A stretch of 64,000 nt of DNA from an uncultured virus (IMG/VR IMGVR_UViG_3300042814_000160). Its lineage: Duplodnaviria > Heunggongvirae > Uroviricota > Caudoviricetes. The notes below the pieces were generated by a model. It worked only from the letters and a program-made list of their open reading frames with translations. It ran no database searches and was not told the DNA's origin. Positions 3,040 through 39,384 of the stretch are shown one piece after another. The stretch lies in IMG/VR virus record IMGVR_UViG_3300042814_000160; one strand, given 5' to 3'. The translations under genes were made by a program, and so were the position numbers. Positions within the stretch are counted from its first letter, which is position 1, and every line of letters begins with the position of its first letter.

Positions 3040-4498
3040 GATCGCCCTCGTCCAGGACATCCTCGCCGGCGCCGGTCTCGGGCAGGATCAACCCGCGCGC
3101 GATCGCCTGGGCCAACTCGGGCGCGTGGTGCGGCCGCCGGGGGATATACCCCAGCAACCCCTCGGGGTCCTGCCACCCACCCACGCGGTCGCAAATCGGG
3201 AGGAACTCGCACTTCTCGCCGTAGTAGCTTTTGCACTCCTCGCCGCGCGACATGGGGACGAGGCGGTCCAACTCGGCCTGGAACTCCGGAGACGCCCACG
3301 CGAACCCCTGGTTGGCCACCTCGTAGAGGGCCCACAGCACGCCCTTCCAGCGATGTTCCTCGGGCCCGAGTTGGCGGAGGTACTGCTCCAGCTTCCAATC
3401 CTCGCGGTAGATCGGCCCGATGGTCCGGGTCATCGCGGCGAGGCGCTCGACCCCCATCCACTGGGTCCAGTAGTGGAGCGGCGAGAGGGCCCCGTTCTCC
3501 TGCCAGAGGGACGCGGGGAGTTCCCAAATCCCGGTCCGCTCGTACTCCTTGGGGACCTTCTTGTTCTTCTGCAGGACGTCGTCCCACTGGAATTGCCCAC
3601 CCCACTTGACCGACCAGTCCTCGCCGTAGAGGGGCGGGTTGGCCTGCCGCCGGCCCCCATACACGAGGTTCGACTGCTGGTACTTGGGGCCGGACGCCTT
3701 CTTCTCCTCGGGGTTCCACTCGGACTTGCGCGGACCCTTGATCAGCCCGTGCACATACACCTCGTCGATGCGGATGTTCTTGCGCGACTCGGTGCCGAGG
3801 ACCCCGGCGGCGAGTTGAATCCGGTACGCCCACCCCTCTTCCCACCCCTTGTTCGCGTCGGCGGTAGTCTTGATTTCATGGTAGGAGTACCGGTTCGCTA
3901 CCGTGCGATGGCGGCCGATGATGTCGGCCCGGGTCATCCAGCCGATCCCATCGCACCCCTTGGCGTCGTGGTCCTCGGCCATGCCCTGGAGGTCGCCCAG
4001 GCCGCAGGTACACCCCACGACCGAGACTTCCTCCATCTCCAGCGACTCGACCGACCACTCGGCGAGGAACGCCGGCAGGGTCACCCGCACGAAGGCCCAG
4101 ACCAGCCCCTCCAGGAGCGAGAGCTGCTCCATCGTGCGGAGGTGCAGGTCATTGGCGTCGAGGATATTGGACAGCCCCCGGGTCTCGACCACTTGGTTGT
4201 AGGACGCGATGGACCCTTCGAGGATCGCGTGGACGGTTTTGTCGTCCGGGATGAGCTGTTCCACGTGAAACGGGGTCTTGGCCTGAACCAACGCGTCCTC
4301 GCGGAATTTCACGCCCAGGAGAATCTGGGCAATCGGGTCGTGGATCCGGGTCCCCGTCAGCGTCGGGATCGACTGCGCCTTCCGGGACCACCCATACCCG
4401 CCCGGGCCGGCGTGGTAGTTCAGATACCGCGCCCGGCGGCAATGGTTGGTGCCCGTTTCCGAGCGCGACCGATCCACGAGCCAGAGGGTGAGGGCCAT
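3032..4498 (-). CDS. Cas4-like / RecB-family PD-(D/E)xK exonuclease with probable 4Fe-4S cluster
   Basis: N-terminal C(RRARYL), RADII...HEIKT, downstream QLAAG, C-terminal C-x7-C-x5-C. Confidence 0.8.
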   Translation of the reverse strand: MALTLWLVDRSRSETGTNHCRRARYLNYHAGPGGYGWSRKAQSIPTLTGTRIHDPIAQILLGVKFREDALVQAKTPFHVEQLIPDDKTVHAILEGSIASYNQVVETRGLSNILDANDLHLRTMEQLSLLEGLVWAFVRVTLPAFLAEWSVESLEMEEVSVVGCTCGLGDLQGMAEDHDAKGCDGIGWMTRADIIGRHRTVANRYSYHEIKTTADANKGWEEGWAYRIQLAAGVLGTESRKNIRIDEVYVHGLIKGPRKSEWNPEEKKASGPKYQQSNLVYGGRRQANPPLYGEDWSVKWGGQFQWDDVLQKNKKVPKEYERTGIWELPASLWQENGALSPLHYWTQWMGVERLAAMTRTIGPIYREDWKLEQYLRQLGPEEHRWKGVLWALYEVANQGFAWASPEFQAELDRLVPMSRGEECKSYYGEKCEFLPICDRVGGWQDPEGLLGYIPRRPHHAPELAQAIARGLILPETGAGEDVLDEGDHG

Positions 4499-14739: not shown

Positions 14740-14787
14740 CGTCCACCCCCACCACCCTAGACTCTCCACCCCTTGAGGTATCGACCC

Positions 14788-18712: not shown

Positions 18713-19093
18713 ATGGGATTCCCCTGGCGCAAAGTGTTGAGTGTGGGATCGGGTGTGGGCGGGATCTTCATCCCCGGGCTGGCTTCGGCCATCGCCACGG
18801 TGGAGGGGAATCTGTCTGGGCTCAAGGGTCCGGACAAGCAGAAGGCCGCGATTGCGATCGCCACCGCGGCGGTGACCACCCTCGAAGGGACCCTCGGCCT
18901 CGACGTGTTGAGCGATCCCCTCGTCATGCAGGCCACCAAGGACTTCGTCAACGCGTCGGTGGCCGTGCAAAACGCCTACGCCATGGTGGACGCGGCCGAA
19001 GCCTCGCTCCGCAAGGTGATCCTCGACGCCCAGGTGAAGGTCCACGCGCGCGCCGTGTCCAAGTCGGCCGAGGCCGGTAAGCTGGGCGAGTAG
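18713..19093 (+). CDS. Holin-like / amphipathic helical protein
   Basis: AAGGAG RBS; MGFPWRKVL...KGPDKQKAA. Confidence 0.55.
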   Translation: MGFPWRKVLSVGSGVGGIFIPGLASAIATVEGNLSGLKGPDKQKAAIAIATAAVTTLEGTLGLDVLSDPLVMQATKDFVNASVAVQNAYAMVDAAEASLRKVILDAQVKVHARAVSKSAEAGKLGE

Positions 19094-19096
19094 CCC

Positions 19097-20398
19097 ATGT
19101 TCTCCCCCCGCGCGGTCGCGGCCGCCGAGGCCCGGGTCTGTGACCAACTCGGCCTGCGCGGGGGGTTGATCCGCCGCCCCATTGACGCGTGCTGGGCGCT
19201 GCGGGAGCATTTGGACAGCCTCCGCGATGAGAGCGGCACCCTCCTCCGCCCCCTGACCCCGGAGGAGAACACCTTCATCCTCCACGAGACCCTCCTCGCC
19301 ACGATCGACTATCGCTACTGGTCGGATCGCTGGGCGACCATCGCCAAGGAGACGCAGGAAGCGGCGCCGATTTCCCCCCGCTGGGCCTCGCAGGAACTTT
19401 TCCTCGCGCGCATGGGGACCGTCGAGGACGACCATGCCGCATCGGGTAACCCCGACGGCGTGTTGATCAACATCCTCAAGGCGCGGCAGTTGGGCATCTC
19501 GACCGAGTGCGAGGTGATCCTCGCCCACCGCGTCACGACCCAGCCGACCGTGCGCGGCCTGGTCGCGGCCGACTCCCCCGAGCAGTCCGAATACCTGTTG
19601 TCCATGGCCGAATTCGTCATCGAGTCCCTCCCCTGGTGGCTGAAGGTCAAGGCGGTCCCGCCCACGGTGAAGGGGAAGATCCTCACCTTCCAGACCAACG
19701 CGTCCATTCGCGTCGGCGCGGGCAAGTCCATGCGCGGCGGGTTGGCCGACAAGGGCAAGTCCAAGGGGCAACTGGGCCGCGGGAAAACCTGGACCACGGT
19801 GCATCTCTCGGAAATCTCCACCTGGGAACGCCCCGAGCAGATCGAGGATTCCCTCATGCCCGGCGTGCCCCGCCGCGGCCACGTGTTCGTCGCACGGGAA
19901 TCGACCGCCAAGGGCCGCTTCGACTACTGGCACCGCGAGTGGAACAAGGCCCGCGATGGCGTGGGGCGCTACACGAATATCTTCATCCCGTGGTACATCG
20001 AGCCGGACAAATACTGGCTCCCCGCACCCGAAGGGTGGGAGCCCTCCCCCTCCACGAAACAGCACGCCGAGGCGGTGGAGCTGGACTCCCCCAAGTGGTG
20101 CCTCGGGGCGACCCATCGGTTGTCGAGGGAGAAACTCTACTTCTATGAAGCCACGCGCGTGTCGTTCGAGAGCGACGGCGAACTCTACAAATTCTTCGAG
20201 GAGTACCCCGCCACGCCCGAGGAGGCGTTTCAACACGCGGGGCGCTCGATTTTCCCGGCCGCCGTCCTGGAGGCGCTCAAAGGGCAGGAACGTCCGCCCG
20301 TGTCGATTTGCGCGGTCGAACCCTTGAAGGATATTGCCCAACTCCGCGATTGGGAACGCCAAGTGGAATCGGCCAAAGCGCGCGCGGTGGGGGCCTAG
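19097..20398 (+). CDS. terL: Terminase large subunit, ATPase half
   Basis: KARQLGIST, VHLSE, ESTAKG, FIPWY, EYPATPEEAF. Confidence 0.9.
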   Translation: MFSPRAVAAAEARVCDQLGLRGGLIRRPIDACWALREHLDSLRDESGTLLRPLTPEENTFILHETLLATIDYRYWSDRWATIAKETQEAAPISPRWASQELFLARMGTVEDDHAASGNPDGVLINILKARQLGISTECEVILAHRVTTQPTVRGLVAADSPEQSEYLLSMAEFVIESLPWWLKVKAVPPTVKGKILTFQTNASIRVGAGKSMRGGLADKGKSKGQLGRGKTWTTVHLSEISTWERPEQIEDSLMPGVPRRGHVFVARESTAKGRFDYWHREWNKARDGVGRYTNIFIPWYIEPDKYWLPAPEGWEPSPSTKQHAEAVELDSPKWCLGATHRLSREKLYFYEATRVSFESDGELYKFFEEYPATPEEAFQHAGRSIFPAAVLEALKGQERPPVSICAVEPLKDIAQLRDWERQVESAKARAVGA

Positions 20399-21361
20399 AT
20401 GGTCGCCGACAACGACCTCCTCCTCCCCGCCGGGCATGGGTTCCGGGCGCTCAACGCGCGCGAGTTGCGCGAACGCGATCACCTGCGTGACCTCCTCCTC
20501 GTGTGGGAACGCCCGCGCCGCCGGGGCGACCGTCGCTATGTGATGGGCGTGGACGTGGCCGATGGCTTGGGGCTCGATCGCAGCGTCATCGAGGTCGCGC
20601 GGATGGGCACGATCGAGGAGCCGGCCGAGCAGGTCGCCCAATACGTGTCGGACCAAATCTCCCCACCTGGTCTCGCCTACATCGTCCAGGCGATTGGGAA
20701 TTGGTACACCGACCCCGACGGCGTCCCCGCCTGCGCGATGATCGAGTGCAACAACCATGGGCTCTCCACCCAGGACACGCTCCAGCTCCACCTGGGCTAC
20801 ACCCACTTCTACCGCTGGGAATACCTCGACGCCGACACCCCGGAGTCGCGGTTCTCGCGCAAAATTGGCTGGTACACCACCGATCGCACCCGGCCCATCA
20901 TCCTGGACAAGTTCCGCACGGCGCTCTGCACGGTGGACCCCATCACGGGCCTGCGCGACTACGTCACCCACTCCTCGATGCTCCACGAGGAACTGCAGGA
21001 CTTCCAGACGAACGGGGCGTTGTGGGAAGCGGAAGCCGCCGCCGGCGCGCACGACGACTGCATCATGGCCGCGGCGATCGCCCACTACGGGTGTTGGCGC
21101 CTCCAGGCCGGGGAAACCGAGCCCATGGACGACCGGCGGCGCCGCGCGAGTGAACAGCAGGCGCGGCTGGCCGCCGAGGCCGTGCGTCAGGGCCGTGTGT
21201 TGGATAAAGCCGATTGGCGCAACACCCCCACCACCGCCGATGAAATGGCCTCCTACGTGGGGGATGAGCCCGAGGATTTGGATCAGCAACTGTTTGACCC
21301 GCGCCAGCTCCCCGAGCGCGACGTGGCGCGGCTATTGGACAGCCGCTTCGGTCGGGGGTAA
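20399..21361 (+). CDS. terL: Terminase large subunit, RNase H-like nuclease half
   Basis: YVMGVDVADG, IECNNHG, HDDCIMAAAIA; in frame immediately after TAG. Confidence 0.9.
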   Translation: MVADNDLLLPAGHGFRALNARELRERDHLRDLLLVWERPRRRGDRRYVMGVDVADGLGLDRSVIEVARMGTIEEPAEQVAQYVSDQISPPGLAYIVQAIGNWYTDPDGVPACAMIECNNHGLSTQDTLQLHLGYTHFYRWEYLDADTPESRFSRKIGWYTTDRTRPIILDKFRTALCTVDPITGLRDYVTHSSMLHEELQDFQTNGALWEAEAAAGAHDDCIMAAAIAHYGCWRLQAGETEPMDDRRRRASEQQARLAAEAVRQGRVLDKADWRNTPTTADEMASYVGDEPEDLDQQLFDPRQLPERDVARLLDSRFGRG

Positions 21362-26174: not shown

Positions 26175-27221
26175 GTGGCGATTCAGTTCGACGAAGTCAA
26201 CACGGTTGCGACCAAGCAGATCCAGCCGGGGATCGTTGACAACTACTTCAAGGCGGGCCCCCTCATGGCCTACCTCAAGAAGCGGTTCAACCGGAAGTGG
26301 ACGGGTCCACTCATCCAGGAGAACTACGAATACAAGGCGATGACCGGCGGCGCCTACAAGAAGGGCACCGCGTTCAACACGCTCCGCGCCCAGACGCGCT
26401 CCGGGATCATCTTCACCCCGCGCTACTACGAGGTGAACATCACGGAGTTCCTGGAGGACCTCGAAGTCGAGATGGCGGGTCCCACGGCGATGTTCTCCGT
26501 CCTCAAGGCGGACATGGCCAACGCCGCGCTGACGATGTCGGCCATGCTCGAAATCGACCTCTTCCGCAACGGCCAGAACGTCGGGGGCAACGACCGTACG
26601 GCCCACCTCAACGGCCTGGAAGAGGCCCTGACCAACGGGGTGGACACCACGTGGACGGGCGCGACCTTCCCCTCCTACGGTGGACAGACCCGCACGGACG
26701 TCAGCCCCGCGCTGAACTCCCCGACGGGCCTCATCGCGGCCTCGGTCACCACGACGTCGTTCCGGATGCTGGAGCACTCGTTCCAGTCGTGCTGCATCGG
26801 CGCCGAGCGGCCCAAGCTGGGCCTCACGACCCTGCGCGAGATGGGCTTCATCGCCGAGACCTTCACGCCCCAGCAGAAGATCGACGTGCTGGACCCGGAA
26901 ATCAACTGGCCGGGCATGAAGTTCAACACGGCGACGATCGTCCAGTCGAACTACTGCCCCGGGCAGGACGGCGTGAACGACGCCCAGCTCGGCAACTACA
27001 ACAACAGCTCGGAAACCTTCTGGTGGCTGAACCCCGGCCCCACGGGTGATGACGCCTACATGCGCCTCTACATCGCGCAGTCGCCGAAGTTCGCGTTCGG
27101 CTTCACGGGCTTCAAGGGCGCGCGTGACGACAACCAGGTGAGCGGCCAGGTGCTGTTCGCCGGCAACTTCGTGGACCGGGCCCCGCGGCTGTCGCGCGGC
27201 CTCTACGGCCTCACCAAGTAA
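26175..27221 (+). CDS. Major capsid protein
   Basis: AGGAGG RBS, strongly biased codons, 348 aa, IVDNYFK..PL, LNGLEEAL; synteny. Confidence 0.85.
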   Translation: MAIQFDEVNTVATKQIQPGIVDNYFKAGPLMAYLKKRFNRKWTGPLIQENYEYKAMTGGAYKKGTAFNTLRAQTRSGIIFTPRYYEVNITEFLEDLEVEMAGPTAMFSVLKADMANAALTMSAMLEIDLFRNGQNVGGNDRTAHLNGLEEALTNGVDTTWTGATFPSYGGQTRTDVSPALNSPTGLIAASVTTTSFRMLEHSFQSCCIGAERPKLGLTTLREMGFIAETFTPQQKIDVLDPEINWPGMKFNTATIVQSNYCPGQDGVNDAQLGNYNNSSETFWWLNPGPTGDDAYMRLYIAQSPKFAFGFTGFKGARDDNQVSGQVLFAGNFVDRAPRLSRGLYGLTK

Positions 27222-33132: not shown

Positions 33133-33159
33133 AGTAGACTCCCGGCTGGTCACAGATTT

Positions 33160-35022
33160 ATGCCACGCCTCAGTCCCTCAGGTGAGCGGGTCGTCTACGG
33201 CATCGACGGGCAGGTGCGGGTGCTGGTCAATGGGGTGACGGTCACCGTCCCGACCCCTCGCGCGGGGGCCTGGTCCTTCCAAGGCGAGACGATCGTGGGC
33301 GGGGGCGGGGTCGACCCCACCACCGGGAAATTCGGCACCCTCCGCTACCACCTCGATACCGGGGTGCTGGACGTCCTCGACACCGCCGCCAACAGCAACT
33401 TCACGGGTTGGGGCGGCGCGTGGCACAGCGGGACCAAACCGATTGAATTGATCGGCCCACCCCCGTTTGGGCTGCCCGGCGCGGTGTTGTACGACAACTC
33501 CGCCGGCGCGGGGTACGGGATGGTCACCCGGCAGGGGTATGCCGTCGCGCGGGTGAACGCGGCCACCTCACCCACCGGGACGGTGTTCTTCGCGCCGGAC
33601 GGGTCCACGGGCCCGGCGACCTGGCCGACGGCGATTGCGCTGGCCGCCAATGACGGCTGGCTCCTCCTACGCTACCCCGATGGCCGGGTGGCGTTCTCCA
33701 CGGATGCCCCCACGGTGCACCGGACCCTCCTTGGTACCCCCGTGGCGCTGGCCGCCGTCGGTCCCGTCGTCTACATCGTCGAGTGGCAGGCGTCGTTTTC
33801 GCGGGTGATCCTCCGCCCGATCGACTCGGTGTTCGGCTGGGTGGTGTCCGCCAGCGGGCACGACTTCTACCCCGATGTGGTGTACGCCACCGACTCACTC
33901 CTCCACGTGGTGTCGTCGTGGGGCGCCGGGGAGCACCCGGGCGAACTCCAGACCTACCTGTTCAACCCGGCCTCCACGGCGGGGCAGGTGGACCTGAGCG
34001 TCCCCTCGACCCCGGCGATGCCGCCCGTGACCGACGTCGCGTGGGTGGGCCGCCCGGCGGCGATGGCCGTGTATTGCTTCGCGGATGTGTCCACGCCCGG
34101 GCATTACACCCTCCCCGTGCGGCCGACCGTGCCCCCGCAGGACCCGGTCGCGGAAACCTCCTACTGGGACGGGACCGATATCCCGGTCGACTGGCTGCTG
34201 GCCCAACCCCTCTGGCGGCCCGTAGGGTTCCCCTGCTACCGCATCCACGGCGAGGGCCTCGATGCCTTCAAGGCCCGCATCACGACCGCCTATCACGTCG
34301 TGACCGCGCACGGGTACCGTCCGGCGCCGGTGTTTGGGCTCCACTCGGGGTGGACCTCTGCCGGCCGCTTCCGTACCGAGGTCGAAGTGGCCGAGGGGAT
34401 TGTCGCCACCTCGCACCTGTCGGACCTCGACGCTACCCCTCTCGCGTGCGCGTTTGCCGCCGGCCGTGGGAACCTCCCCGACGGCCGCCCTGATGTGCTG
34501 CCGTCGGCGTGGGCGTATTTCGACGCGTACATGGCGGGGATTCCCAGCGCCGCCGACTGGCCCACCCCGCCACCTGACCCGGGGCCTGAGCCCCCGATTC
34601 CCCCGGAGCCCCCCATGCCGACGTCACGCAAAGTCTCGATCGCGTCCCGCGTGTTGAACACCCGCTTCGGCGACCCCGATCAGGGGTTCGAGGAACGCCC
34701 GACGATCGACAAGCCGCTCTCGCCCAAGGACCCGTGGCCGATGACCACCGGGCTCATCCAGGGTGACGAGACGTACACCCTCCAGACCTCGCCGTCAGGG
34801 GCGCCGTACCTCCGTTGGCCGAACGGCAACGTCATCGCCATCCGCAAGGACGGCGGGCCGAACAATCTCGGGGGGAACCTCGCCGAAACCCCATGGCCCG
34901 GCGACACCTACGAACCGGGCCGCGACGAGAAGTTGGCCAAGACCGCCCAGGCCAACGTCTACGCCGAAGCGGAGCCGCCGGCCGGACGCGCCGCGGTAGC
35001 GTTCGCGCTGGTGTCCCTTTGA
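33160..35022 (+). CDS. Multidomain late protein; upstream part of a putative +1 frameshift fusion
   Basis: Beta-rich N-terminal domain, Pro linkers; ends CTT TGA C. Confidence 0.7.
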   Translation: MPRLSPSGERVVYGIDGQVRVLVNGVTVTVPTPRAGAWSFQGETIVGGGGVDPTTGKFGTLRYHLDTGVLDVLDTAANSNFTGWGGAWHSGTKPIELIGPPPFGLPGAVLYDNSAGAGYGMVTRQGYAVARVNAATSPTGTVFFAPDGSTGPATWPTAIALAANDGWLLLRYPDGRVAFSTDAPTVHRTLLGTPVALAAVGPVVYIVEWQASFSRVILRPIDSVFGWVVSASGHDFYPDVVYATDSLLHVVSSWGAGEHPGELQTYLFNPASTAGQVDLSVPSTPAMPPVTDVAWVGRPAAMAVYCFADVSTPGHYTLPVRPTVPPQDPVAETSYWDGTDIPVDWLLAQPLWRPVGFPCYRIHGEGLDAFKARITTAYHVVTAHGYRPAPVFGLHSGWTSAGRFRTEVEVAEGIVATSHLSDLDATPLACAFAAGRGNLPDGRPDVLPSAWAYFDAYMAGIPSAADWPTPPPDPGPEPPIPPEPPMPTSRKVSIASRVLNTRFGDPDQGFEERPTIDKPLSPKDPWPMTTGLIQGDETYTLQTSPSGAPYLRWPNGNVIAIRKDGGPNNLGGNLAETPWPGDTYEPGRDEKLAKTAQANVYAEAEPPAGRAAVAFALVSL

Positions 35023-36004
35023 CCCGGATATCCCTGCGCCACCCTCGGGTCCGCTCCGCGCGCTCCTGACCGTCCGCGGGAACTACCCCTATGGACCCAA
35101 GGGTCCCACCCGCCCCGACGGCTCCCGCGACTGGGACGACCTCACCTGTGTCGAGGACAACGCCTTCTTCCTCGACGAACTCGAACACGTCTGGCGCCGG
35201 GATGTCGGTCTCGCCGCGCGCATCCTGACGGAGTCGATCGCCAAGGGGATCAACGCGATCACCGTGGGCCCGGTCTACGCCGGTGGGTACCACGGCTGGT
35301 GGCCGGACACGAATTGGGTCGGGCAGGACCCGTCTACGTTTGCCGACTTCTGCGAGTGGGTGGCGGGGTTTGGCCTCTCCATCACCCTCGTCGTGTTCCC
35401 CGACTGCGGCATCTACTGGCACGGGACCGAAGCCGGGTGGGACTGGGCCGCGATCGACCGTGACCTCAAACCCCTCTACGACCAGGACCGGGTGCGCGCC
35501 GCGGTGTCGCGCGTGCAGTTCGGGTGGGAAATCTGGACCTACGTCGCCGGGATGATCCCCGGCTACGACCGGATGCGCGCGTGGTTCCCCACCCAGGAAC
35601 GCTGCTGGCACAACGGGCCCGAGCACGCCTCGCCCGGCATGGGTACCGAGGAGGAACGCCCCACGTGGCAAACGGCCGCCGACCACGGGATCCACCGCCT
35701 GCTGTTCCAGGGGTTCCCCCTCTCGACCGATCCGGCGACGATCGATCGGCCGCCGCTCGATCAGCTCAAGTACGACCTCTGGGATATGTGGCGGCGGTTC
35801 AACGGGACGGATGGGTCGCCGTGGGGTCCGACACCCATTCTCACCGAGCGCGGCACCCCCCTCGAAGTGGAGTACGCGGAAGCGGCCGCCTACGACATCA
35901 CCAACCACAACGCGCCGGAGTCGATTGGGACCACCCTCGCCGACGCGGCGTTGTCGGTGGCCGGGGCCAGCCGTAACACGACCGATGGTCTGCCGAGCGC
36001 GTAG
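35021..36004 (+). CDS. Glycoside-hydrolase-like (TIM barrel?) domain, probably expressed by +1 frameshift
   Basis: Frame open from 35000 with no ATG/GTG/TTG before 35264; GINAITV, QFGWEI, EYAEA; aromatic-rich. Confidence 0.6.
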   Translation, partial: DPDIPAPPSGPLRALLTVRGNYPYGPKGPTRPDGSRDWDDLTCVEDNAFFLDELEHVWRRDVGLAARILTESIAKGINAITVGPVYAGGYHGWWPDTNWVGQDPSTFADFCEWVAGFGLSITLVVFPDCGIYWHGTEAGWDWAAIDRDLKPLYDQDRVRAAVSRVQFGWEIWTYVAGMIPGYDRMRAWFPTQERCWHNGPEHASPGMGTEEERPTWQTAADHGIHRLLFQGFPLSTDPATIDRPPLDQLKYDLWDMWRRFNGTDGSPWGPTPILTERGTPLEVEYAEAAAYDITNHNAPESIGTTLADAALSVAGASRNTTDGLPSA

Positions 36005-36013
36005 GGGGCACAC

Positions 36014-36331
36014 ATGCCCACCCGGGAGGACGTGGCCCTCGCGGCCTTGGTGCAGTTGATCGCCGCGCGGGTCCCCGGCACCCCGCGGGTGCTGGTGGCG
36101 CTGGCGTTCGAGTTTGGTGATGCGTGGCAGTTGGCGGTGAAACGGGATCAGGAGGAGTTGTACCCGGTGGCGGTGGCGCCGGCGCACGCGGGCGGGCCGG
36201 GCCGGAAACGGTGTATTGACGGGTTTACCAAACACAGTTGGGGAGCAGGTGACACATGCGTACGATGCAGCTATCGGAACAAGGAACTCGCCGGGCGGAT
36301 GCGAAGCTATCGGCGCGCGGTCTTGGAGTGA
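36014..36331 (+). CDS. Hypothetical protein with Cys/His motif
   Basis: AGGGGG RBS; C...H...CxxC. Confidence 0.5.
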   Translation: MPTREDVALAALVQLIAARVPGTPRVLVALAFEFGDAWQLAVKRDQEELYPVAVAPAHAGGPGRKRCIDGFTKHSWGAGDTCVRCSYRNKELAGRMRSYRRAVLE

Positions 36332-36996
36332 TTCTGGGCGGCCTGACCTGGCTGGTGTCGGTCACCGCCGCCTTCGCTCAGAACATCCCACCCACGACCA
36401 CCGGCATCACCGTCGTGGCGCCGTCGTTGAATGGCACCTACATGGGGGTGCTCAACGTCGATGTGGTGATCGTCGCGCCGGCCACCCCGCCGCTCACCGC
36501 CACGCTGCGTCAGGAGGGGGTGTTCGCCCCCCTCGCCACCTCGGCCCTGACCCTCTCGGGCAATGACCACTACATCGCGGTGTTCGCGCTCCCGGCCGTG
36601 GCCAGTCCCACCGGGATGGTCCTGACCGTCACCGACGGCACGCGCGCGGCGCAGCGGCCGTTCATGGTGGGCGTAGGGACGGTGGATCCGCTCCCGCCCC
36701 AGCCCCCCTCGGCCACCTTTACCCAGATCATGGCCCTCCTCGCGGCGATGGCGTCCCAGGCGGACACCAACCAGAAGGTCACACTCGAATCGCTGCAAAA
36801 GGGGTTCGCGCAACTCGCGCCGCTGCCCACCCCCACGGGGATCCCCTGCCGGGTGGCCAGCGCGACGACTGTGTACGCCAACGGACACTGGAAGGTCACC
36901 TTGGACTGCCCGTCGAGCATCGCGCCGGCGCCGCCCGCGAAGGAGTCCACCATCGCCGTGTTCGGGGCCACCAGCGCCGCGATTGTGCGAAAGTAG
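36328..36996 (+). CDS. Signal-peptide-bearing hypothetical protein
   Basis: GTGA overlap; ILGGLTWLVSVTAAFA|QN. Confidence 0.55.
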   Translation: MILGGLTWLVSVTAAFAQNIPPTTTGITVVAPSLNGTYMGVLNVDVVIVAPATPPLTATLRQEGVFAPLATSALTLSGNDHYIAVFALPAVASPTGMVLTVTDGTRAAQRPFMVGVGTVDPLPPQPPSATFTQIMALLAAMASQADTNQKVTLESLQKGFAQLAPLPTPTGIPCRVASATTVYANGHWKVTLDCPSSIAPAPPAKESTIAVFGATSAAIVRK

Positions 36997-36999
36997 CGC

Positions 37000-37641
37000 A
37001 TGGCCGCCGGCGACTTCGTCCAAGTCGGAAATTTCACGACCGGCATCGCCCAGAACCCAACGGTGTCCCTCGCCGGCGTAACGAACGGCAATACGTTGGT
37101 GCTGATCCACGTGAACTACAGCGGCACGGTGAACAGTATTGACGATGACAAGAGCAACACGTGGGGGGTTGCAACCGGGACCAATTTTGCCACGGCCCCG
37201 AACGTCGTCGGAGGTACGGTCACCGCCACCGTTCATTACTCAGCGAGTGTGCAGTACTTGTTGTGCTTGGCGGAATACGAAGGAAATTTGCCGCTGGGCC
37301 TCTACAGCGCCGGGCCGTTCAGTGCCGGACAAACCCCCTTCGATAGTGGAAATATTTCTTCATCGGCTGGGTCCTCCTTGTTGGGATTGCGCGTGTCGTT
37401 CGGCGCAACACTCGCGTCGTGGCATTCTTCCTATACCCATCGCAAAAATGGAAGTGATGGGTTCATTGATGTGAGCTTGTTTGATGCGGTGAACCAAGCG
37501 GCCGGCACGAATTCCTTCTGGTGGTCTGCGACCAATCCAGCGACTTCGACGGGCAACGGAGAAATCTGTGAGTTGACCGTGGGGGGCGGGTCCCCCTCCA
37601 TCTGGCCTGGTCGTCTTGCCATGACGGGTGTCGGGCGCTAG
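37000..37641 (+). CDS. Beta-rich virion/tail protein with lower-GC 3' half
   Basis: GVTNGNTLVL...IDDDKSNTW. Confidence 0.6.
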   Translation: MAAGDFVQVGNFTTGIAQNPTVSLAGVTNGNTLVLIHVNYSGTVNSIDDDKSNTWGVATGTNFATAPNVVGGTVTATVHYSASVQYLLCLAEYEGNLPLGLYSAGPFSAGQTPFDSGNISSSAGSSLLGLRVSFGATLASWHSSYTHRKNGSDGFIDVSLFDAVNQAAGTNSFWWSATNPATSTGNGEICELTVGGGSPSIWPGRLAMTGVGR

Positions 37642-37650
37642 ACTCCCCCC

Positions 37651-39384
37651 ATGCGACGACCCTCCACCACCGTCCTCCTCTTCGCGGTCCTCTTCGCGGC
37701 GATGATGGGGGTGGGCACCACCGCCCAGACCCTCTCGCAACAGGTGCTCCAGCTCCTCGCCCGCAACAACACCTGGACGGGGCTGCAGACGTTCGATCGC
37801 TCGGTGGGGTTGAAGCTGGACCGGGCCTCGGCCCCGCTGGCCTCCCCCACGGACAAGCTGGAGAACCGCGGCGGGAACCTCTATTTCGGCGGCGCGCTCG
37901 TGACGACCAGCGCCTCCAGCGGGACGGTCACCTCGGTCGACATGACCGTCCCGTCGATCCTGAGTGTGTCGGGTAACCCGATCACGTCCAGCGGCACCCT
38001 CGCGGTGTCCCTCGCCACCCAAGGCCAGAACCTCGTGTTCGCCGGGCCCACCTCCGGGACGGGCACCCCCACCTTTCGCGCGCTGGTGGCGGCGGACATC
38101 CCCCCCATCAGTATCGTTACCGGCACGGTCGCGGTGGCCAATGGCGGGACGGGGCTGACCTCGGGCACGAGCGGCGGGGTACTGGCCTTCACCGCCTCGG
38201 GCACCATCGCCTCCTCGGGCGCGCTCACCGCCAACCGATTGGTCCTGGGTGGTGGGGCCGGTGCGGTCCCGACGGTGGCCGCGTCCTTGGGCACCACGGC
38301 GACGGTGTTGCACGGCAACGCCGCCGGTGCGCCGACGTTTGGAGCGGTGGTGCTCACGACCGATGTGTCCGGGATCCTTCCCGTGGCCAACGGCGGCACC
38401 GCCCTCGCGTCCGGGACCTCCGGCGGCGTGCTCTACTACTCGGGCACGGGGACCCTCGCGTCGAGTGGCGCGTTGACGGCCAGCCGGATTGTCCTCGGCG
38501 GCGGCGCCGGGGCCTCCCCGACGGTCCTGGGGTCGCTGGGGACGACGACCACCGTCCTCCATGGCAATGCGGCGGGCGCCCCCACCTTCGGGGCGGTGGA
38601 CCTCGTGGCGGACGTCACGGGCACCCTGGCGGTGGCGAGTGGCGGGACGGCGTTGGCCAGCTACACCCAGGGCGATGTGCTGTACGCCTCGGGCACGACC
38701 ACCCTCGCGGTGCTGGCCAAGAATGCCAGCGCCACCCGCTACCTAGCGAACACGGGGACCTCCAACAACCCGGCGTGGGCGCAGGTGAACCTCGCCAACG
38801 GGGTCACCGGGACCCTCCCGGCGGCCAACGGCGGGACCTCGATCACCGGGACGCCCACCAACGGGCAGCTCCTCATCGGCAACGGGAGTGGCTTCACCCT
38901 CGCGGCGCTCACCGGCACGGCCAACCAGGTCACCGTCACCAACGGCGCGGGGACGATCACCTTGTCCCTGCCGCAGTCGATCGCCACCGCGTCCACCCCC
39001 CAATTCGCCCGGCTCGGGCTGGGCACGGGCGCCGGCGCGACCGCGGTCATCACCACCGCCGGCCAGATCAACACGGGCATCTACGTCCAGTCGAACTGCC
39101 CGACCGCCTCCACCACCGACTGGAACAACGGGATGGTCCAGCAGGTGACCCTGACCGGGGCCCCCTGTACCTTCACCTTCCAGAACCCGATCAGCGGCGC
39201 GTTGGAGTACACGCTGATCCTCATCCAGGACGGCTCGGGGAATCGCACCGCCGCGTGGCCGGGGACGCTCAAGTGGCAGGGCGGCGCGGCGCCAACCCTC
39301 ACCACGACCGCGTCCAAGACGGACATTTGCTTCTTCAAGTGGGATGGCACCAGCTACCTCGGCCGGTGTTCCCTCAACTACTAA
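37651..39384 (+). CDS. Tail fibre-like protein with ANGGT repeats and N-terminal signal peptide
   Basis: Tandem ~83-aa duplication; C-terminal LILIQDGSGNRTAAWP..KWQGGAAPTLT. Confidence 0.75.
   Translation: MRRPSTTVLLFAVLFAAMMGVGTTAQTLSQQVLQLLARNNTWTGLQTFDRSVGLKLDRASAPLASPTDKLENRGGNLYFGGALVTTSASSGTVTSVDMTVPSILSVSGNPITSSGTLAVSLATQGQNLVFAGPTSGTGTPTFRALVAADIPPISIVTGTVAVANGGTGLTSGTSGGVLAFTASGTIASSGALTANRLVLGGGAGAVPTVAASLGTTATVLHGNAAGAPTFGAVVLTTDVSGILPVANGGTALASGTSGGVLYYSGTGTLASSGALTASRIVLGGGAGASPTVLGSLGTTTTVLHGNAAGAPTFGAVDLVADVTGTLAVASGGTALASYTQGDVLYASGTTTLAVLAKNASATRYLANTGTSNNPAWAQVNLANGVTGTLPAANGGTSITGTPTNGQLLIGNGSGFTLAALTGTANQVTVTNGAGTITLSLPQSIATASTPQFARLGLGTGAGATAVITTAGQINTGIYVQSNCPTASTTDWNNGMVQQVTLTGAPCTFTFQNPISGALEYTLILIQDGSGNRTAAWPGTLKWQGGAAPTLTTTASKTDICFFKWDGTSYLGRCSLNY

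Follow-up and report, generated by a model that had tools for sequence, protein, structure and literature searches.

The best-known site of +1 ribosomal frameshifting is that of prfB, the gene of release factor 2 (RF2), in which a Shine-Dalgarno (SD) sequence, a spacer of three nucleotides (nt), a CUU codon and a UGA stop followed by C (SD-N3-CUU_UGA_C) close a peptide of 25 residues; all the +1 sites of the CUU-stop type held in RECODE belong, as that collection is described in PMC10885494, to prfB genes. In phages, +1 shifts at the stop codon of late genes have been described with another slip codon: in the tsh genes of the Listeria phages PSA, A118 and A500 a CCC_UGA site fuses a start-less downstream open reading frame (ORF) to a tail protein, according to the account given in PMC5009743, and in the lactococcal 936-group the MTP-TpeX fusion, made at CCC.UAG, has been seen on Western blots, as PMC4759559 relates. 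The present analysis concerns an exact CTT_TGA_C heptamer found at the end of a late gene in a stretch of 64,000 nt (hereafter the window) from an uncultured tailed virus of soil (Caudoviricetes; IMG/VR record IMGVR_UViG_3300042814_000160), where a gene for a protein of 620 amino acids (aa) is followed, in the +1 frame, by a start-less frame for a glycosidase domain; it is proposed, with moderate confidence, that a programmed +1 frameshift at this shifty stop yields both the 620-aa product and a 947-aa fusion. The elements of the junction are the following:

33160..35022, plus strand: zero-frame ORF (P0001), 620 aa, beginning with ATG and ending CTT TGA; GC content at third codon positions (GC3) 0.89.
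34997..34999, plus strand: TAG stop of the +1 frame, closing that frame seven codons before the shift site.
35010..35013, plus strand: GGTG, a weak SD-like element of presumed strength and register, 3 nt (TCC) before CTT.
35017..35023, plus strand: CTT_TGA_C, the proposed +1 shifty-stop site, with the P-site Leu codon CTT, the zero-frame TGA and then C.
35021..36004, plus strand: +1-frame ORF for a (beta/alpha)8 barrel resembling glycoside hydrolase (GH) clan A, 327 codons plus TAG, without a start codon of its own.
35264..35266, plus strand: GTG, first canonical start of the +1 frame, at residue 89 of the domain; used by the public gene calls (246-aa product).
33160..36004, plus strand: predicted trans-frame product, 947 aa, with the junction ...AFALVSL-DPDIPAPPSG... 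and CTTT read as L at L620 only.

With prfB the window shares the identical heptamer in the same frame, with UGA and then C and a short overlap of the two frames, as well as the presence in the +1 frame of a functional domain devoid of its own start. The window gene, however, is not that of RF2, so that no feedback loop is to be expected and the site would work like that of prfB without being a member of its family; moreover, its zero-frame product is a full protein of 620 aa instead of a 25-residue peptide, and the place of the strong SD of prfB is taken by the four nucleotides GGUG. A dependence of the shift on the speed of RF2 would be expected at the window site too, since it follows from the same mechanism, as far as this is set out in PMC5009743 and PMC3711429. 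By analogy, the phage extensions at CCC-stop sites would be the nearest functional analogues: as in the window, a rare P-site codon adjoins the stop with which a late gene ends, and the ORF behind it lacks a start; this ORF is expressed only as a C-terminal extension, so that one message yields two products, as is proposed for the window. They differ in using CCC, whereas the slip codon of the window is CUU, in adding an immunoglobulin (Ig)-like or carbohydrate-binding module, whereas the extension of the window is a catalytic barrel of 327 residues that is free-standing in the relatives examined, and in their upstream partner, a tail tube protein, as which the 620-aa protein is not identified. 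A literature search turned up no case of CUU_UGA in a phage, which is not proof of its absence from print.

The sequence and the ORF list agree with the first-pass annotation of the window in that the 620-aa ORF ends GTG(35011) TCC CTT(35017-35019) TGA(35020-35022) C(35023), that a weak SD-like GGTG precedes CTT by 3 nt, and that the +1 frame, open from 35000 to the TAG at 36002-36004, contains no ATG, GTG or TTG before the GTG at 35264; its translation at the junction reads RSRWCPF DPDIPAPPSGPLRALLTVRGNYPYG... and continues to that TAG. As the +1 frame is closed by the TAG at 34997-34999, any +1 shift is confined to 35000-35022, in the overlap of seven codons (34999 to 35019) that directly precedes TGA; among these codons only CTT_T permits a re-pairing (CUU to UUU) adjoining a slowly decoded stop. 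Homology does not locate the shift point, because alternative positions score equally in an N-terminal profile test (64.5-64.7 bits). In the GC3 frame plot the coding signal leaves the zero frame for the +1 frame at about 34970-35060, and from there on the GC3 of the +1 frame is 0.80-0.95, a good distance before GTG 35264 is reached. CTT is seldom used, accounting for 19 of the 10,386 codons of 24 plus-strand ORFs (1.8 per 1000); among 67 ORFs selected by GC3, CTT is the last codon of one, and TGA followed by C closes ten. Given the rarity of CTT and the frequency of TGA-C ends, the exact CTT_TGA_C is calculated to arise by chance at roughly 3 in 10,000 gene ends.

According to the proposed mechanism, ribosomes translating the 620-aa late gene would arrive with CUU in the P site and UGA-C in the A site, and most of them would terminate at UGA, releasing the 620-aa protein; in a minority, peptidyl-tRNA-Leu would slip from CUU to UUU, GAC would be read next, and translation would continue through a Pro-rich linker into the 327-residue barrel, to give the 947-aa fusion. 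The two products are those foreseen in the first-pass annotation, apart from the length of the fusion, about 946 aa there and 947 aa by the CTTT reading. That the slip occurs, that it is as the fusion that the enzyme functions and that the speed of RF2 at UGA-C sets the proportion of the two products is what we infer from the junction; the likely role would be to equip part of the molecules of a late protein, of virion or lysis, with an enzyme that cuts polysaccharides or the cell wall. The more general statement, that translation of 35030-35263 requires a non-standard event of some kind, is well supported. No tRNA gene was found in the window, so no suppressor or helper tRNA is at hand there.

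The downstream frame encodes a complete and conserved enzyme domain of the glycoside hydrolase type, and homology and predicted fold both bear out the GH-like domain of the earlier reading. An exhaustive HMMER search of 1.84 billion representatives returned 67 proteins at E <= 0.001 (27 of them at E <= 1e-30), one of which is a truncated public call of the same gene and another a protein of 1477 aa matching only residues 14-51, in repeats; the remaining matches are 105-579 aa long, mostly 270-430 aa. The residues invariant in the family, namely Y97, E177, Q237, E294 and D329 (62 aligned sequences), are all kept. The predicted model is near-perfect and has the (beta/alpha)8 barrel that characterizes GH clan A (the 4/7 superfamily, with GH5, GH53, GH10, GH51 and similar families), to the structures of which the barrel of the window is 5-13% identical. 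In this model E177 (codon 35528-35530, P0002) follows the strand formed by residues 171-175, corresponding to strand 4, and E294 (codon 35879-35881) ends the strand 289-294, corresponding to strand 7; both are invariant in the 62 sequences, and they form the putative catalytic pair of glutamates. Neither Pfam nor PHROG has a model that matches the barrel of the window protein, no Pfam barrel match is present in any of the 62 aligned members, and the sequence falls in no named GH family of these collections.

Homology and fold begin at 35030-35045. In an alignment with 20 stand-alone members (A1), each of which begins with its own initiator residue, a conserved LRGQFVI..PYGPRPG motif lies about 16-22 residues after the initiator; at the window junction the N-terminus of the family, about 11 profile positions including the Met, is absent, and homology begins at the ATC codon 35030. 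Fusions at the N-terminus are tolerated by the family, since some members carry domains ahead of the barrel: CarboxypepD_reg domains are found in 6 of the 62 aligned sequences, and Ig-like or fascin/FRG1-like domains in single members. A bacterial protein (L012) has an N-terminal extension before the barrel together with a lipoprotein-like signal peptide, as read from its sequence. As regards the distribution of the family, megablast of the locus, tblastn of the enzyme and tblastn of the family member P0031 gave no match in GenBank phages; in IMG/VR nothing was found for P0004, P0031 or P0084, and a scan of the same database returned one match of 22 residues (L001). Two members from public contigs of 40.9 and 34.1 kb (P0021 and P0031) have been called from an internal Met (MDQLD.. 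and MDELD..), and these calls, like the public call for the window, are devoid of approximately the first 55 residues of the barrel.

The way in which the other late genes of this phage begin sets the junction apart. The window has a GC content of 68% and contains a plus-strand late block with the terminase, the major head protein, an SU10-type adaptor and a tail fibre gene; late genes usually start at the preceding stop, an ATG or GTG being present at 22 of 36 junctions no more than 20 nt from the stop of the gene before, and few of them have an SD sequence. The stop-start junctions are of the types TAGCCCATG, TAATG and GTGA, the first of which occurs at 19091, 31972, 46609 and 51338 (4 instances, against 0.14 expected) and, being composed of a stop, a Pro codon and a start all in one frame, always joins genes that share a frame. 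Given this habit, the missing start at 35022 is an exception; indeed, among the three junctions with a gap of more than 200 nt, it is only at 35022 that the next frame is open at the stop and has no start for 88 codons.

The junction could be ascribed to an error of sequencing or assembly in the T-run or the C-run, the true ORF being continuous (about 946 aa) or provided with an ordinary start; the site does lie within CCCTTTGACCC, which holds two short homopolymers, while contigs and not raw reads were examined. Three-base runs are not error-prone in short-read data, and the window, the IMG/VR record and a Logan contig agree; the explanation is very improbable. Of these sequences the record (G001), which equals the window at 100% identity over 56,849 nt, is for that reason not independent, whereas over 34630-38000 the separate Logan assembly of the probable source run, at a word depth of 19, agrees with the window without a single difference or gap, and a contig of 176 nt, which comes from another habitat and a second study, aligns gap-free with 34999-35174, 1 position being mismatched. 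Run X2, with 15% of the sampled words and short contigs, was used solely to show that no gap is present at the site, and not to name a habitat. The indel check called for at the outset, made on contigs, found no gap in either the independent assembly or the second-study contig, and an assembly indel at the junction is unlikely. Scarcely credible is the proposal that the public gene calls are correct and that the protein of 246 aa starts at GTG 35264, even if this is the first canonical start and the calls of three public gene callers begin there or still later. Such a start, for which no SD is present within 14 nt, lies in the middle of the domain, as the first-pass annotation had stated, after the first barrel strands and helix; it would remove residues 1-88, with the first strands, the first helix and the residues F57 and E60 (invariant in the 20 stand-alone homologs of A1; E60 is also nearly invariant in A4), and for this reason the codons from about 35030 must be translated. 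Furthermore, the 88 upstream codons have a coding GC3 and are about 55% identical to the relatives, and no homolog has been found to start near 35264.

There are two further explanations. In one of them, which is unlikely, the junction is a fixed lesion, that is a one-base insertion in a once-continuous ORF or a recombination scar that deleted about 10 first codons and the start, so that the enzyme frame would be silent or expressed by adventitious low-level slippage: about 11 N-terminal profile positions including the Met are missing, the relatives carry their own ATG, no conserved or fused form is known, and in DNA of 68% GC open frames persist for long. Yet such a lesion would have to strike a domain boundary, three codons before the beginning of homology, and also create the best-known +1 site, in a frame that has kept all the invariant residues, a GC3 (0.88-0.95) resembling that of expressed neighbours and a near-perfect model; the sequence recurs, moreover, in the second study. 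The other explanation, to be regarded as distinctly unlikely, holds that the two genes are separate and that a glycosidase of about 324 aa, a length similar to that of the stand-alone homologs (310-365 aa), is produced by termination-reinitiation or from a non-canonical start, most plausibly AUC 35030, 7 nt after the UGA. The heavy use of stop-start coupling by this phage agrees with it, as do the beginning of family homology exactly at the ATC codon and the presence, in a contig of another origin discussed below (L011), of CTG where relatives have the initiator Met of MAKFLD. Neither a canonical start nor an SD is found near the ATC, however, and this codon, the only near-cognate one ahead of the conserved GPLR motif, falls opposite an Ile inside the protein of the nearest relative; at all the other coupled junctions examined the start is ATG or GTG, and the exact CTT_TGA_C, with the coincidence per gene end calculated above, would be left unexplained. 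AUC initiation in E. coli amounts to about 1% or less of that at AUG. Other possibilities have been considered and rejected: read-through or recoding of the UGA, as the zero frame past the stop is without homology (score -3.4), its GC3 is down to 0.4-0.5 and TGA closes 23 of the 67 ORFs, and transcriptional slippage, as the runs are of only 3 nt.

A programmed frameshift has, in turn, a number of observations against it. As a bare string the heptamer CTTTGAC is not enriched (1 match on both strands, against 3.5 expected), its unusual point being reading frame and position, not frequency. The GGTG is only 4 nt long and would pair with CACC of the anti-SD, not with the CCUCC core used by prfB (a pairing presumed from the element), in a phage that seldom uses SD sequences in general; no downstream RNA structure stands out at the site (z -0.5), and Rfam gave no match. 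The fused homologs that the first-pass annotation had suggested looking for in related phages were not found: the databases searched contain no single-ORF fusion of the 620-aa protein and the glycosidase, and the whole domain is present in no protein longer than 579 aa among the 67 HMMER matches and in none among proteins of 586-2000 aa. The homologs with readable DNA are independent genes; in particular, the enzymes of three metagenome contigs (L007, L008 and L009), 52-56% identical to that of the window, have each their own ATG. No relative of the 620-aa protein besides itself exists among 5.8 billion proteins, and IMG/VR returned nothing for P0001 or for its last 200 aa; this protein is an orphan, and the only other genomes with the junction are identical (G001) or near-identical (short contigs, run X2) to the window. 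The 176-nt contig reaches only 18 nt upstream of CTT, against the 31 required to count as bridging, and minority variants at the site are invisible in both runs, which were examined as contigs.

In two of these three relatives, L008 and L009, the enzyme starts 10 nt after a gene of 64 aa whose product, by sequence reading, resembles a two-span membrane protein, and in L007 it starts 4 nt after an overlapping ORF of 99 aa; still further upstream are a gene of 82 aa and a longer one whose product has a linker rich in Pro. For the genes around the enzyme in L007 and L009, tblastn found no equivalent in the window (best E 0.024). A different arrangement is found in L011, a contig binned with an Acidobacteriota genome, where a holin (PF23987) lies about 0.5 kb upstream and is followed by a gene of 551 aa and then by the enzyme gene; among 401 genomes sampled from the phylum of L011 the enzyme family is present in one, the L011 genome itself. 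The last codons of the 551-aa gene are AGT TTT TAG, and the enzyme follows in the -1 frame (L011 3785-3860), with CTG at the position of the initiator Met of MAKFLD in two relatives (P0015 and P0028) and in-frame GTG codons 19 and 55 codons upstream, at 3785 and 3677; L011 is therefore a possible second non-standard junction in the glycosidase family, suggestive and at the same time ambiguous. A homology between the 620-aa protein and the 551-aa protein of L011 is not accepted (BLASTP E 0.56): hhalign gives it a probability of 85%, but one of 2% when the linker rich in Pro is taken out. One contig (L010) was matched by a degenerate DNA pattern made from the junction, in which the same letters stand in another frame inside an ORF, and this is regarded as a chance match.

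A bolder interpretation, which must be considered improbable at present, is that the glycosidase is a movable module repeatedly hitched to a large late or lysis gene by shifty stops (+1 CUU_UGA_C in the window, possibly -1 U_UUU_UAG in L011), and that the RF2-sensing heptamer of the host has been adopted to make the amount of the fusion a readout of termination capacity, and with it of translational state, in the infected cell; if true, this would be the first prfB cassette employed outside release-factor genes as a viral regulatory device. Short of this interpretation, a programmed frameshift in the window, if real, would place a CUU_UGA_C site outside release-factor genes, a kind absent from RECODE as described in PMC10885494, and would be a case of phage frameshifting that adds a whole catalytic domain and not a decoration module. 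Gene callers truncate such genes, the three public calls starting the enzyme at least 88 residues too late. The analysis also defines an unnamed family of clan-A-like glycosidases in soil phage contigs, with a holin nearby in one of them and a small membrane-protein gene adjoining in three others.

The upstream protein is rich in beta strands at the N-terminus and has a Pro-rich linker at about residues 465-488. Neither Pfam nor PHROG contains a family for it, and its fold is not confidently predicted, the predicted local distance difference test (pLDDT) score being 0.43 for the ESM Atlas model and 35 for AlphaFold run on the single sequence. Its gene belongs to the late block of the plus strand, where it has the major head protein (26175-27221) on one side and the tail fibre gene (37651-39384) on the other. 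A contig of 472 nt from the probable source run (depth 5) matches the window only at 34956-35023, that is over 68 nt with 7 differences; the last matching letter is the C that follows TGA, the contig does not resemble the window on either side of the match, and it may represent a relative with nothing in common with the window but the 3' end of the gene for the 620-aa protein. Upstream of this gene a short repeated motif is found:

33135..33143, plus strand: TAGACTCCC motif, one of six copies, all of them ahead of late genes; it lies 17 nt before the ATG with which the 620-aa gene begins.

The consensus TAGACTCYY occurs on the plus strand at 14758, 17155, 33135, 37639, 39579 and 42607 (6 copies, against 0.33 expected); the copies at 33135, 37639, 39579 and 42607 lie just upstream of late-gene starts, none is found before the glycosidase frame, and the motif may be a late promoter or a unit boundary.

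Elsewhere in the late block, the large terminase (19097-21361) occupies one frame that is cut by an in-frame TAG at 20396-20398, followed by ATG at 20399, into halves of 433 aa (the ATPase part) and 320 aa (the nuclease part); when the stop is read through with X, the resulting 754 aa give one continuous TerL match (phrog_2, residues 87-711, E 7.7e-13), and the terminase could be either a split gene with stop-start coupling or a case of TAG read-through. The use of stop codons differs between the modules of the phage, the minus-strand genes, probably early, ending mostly with TGA and the plus-strand late genes mostly with TAA or TAG; overall, the 67 ORFs are closed by TAG in 24 cases, by TGA in 23 and by TAA in 20.

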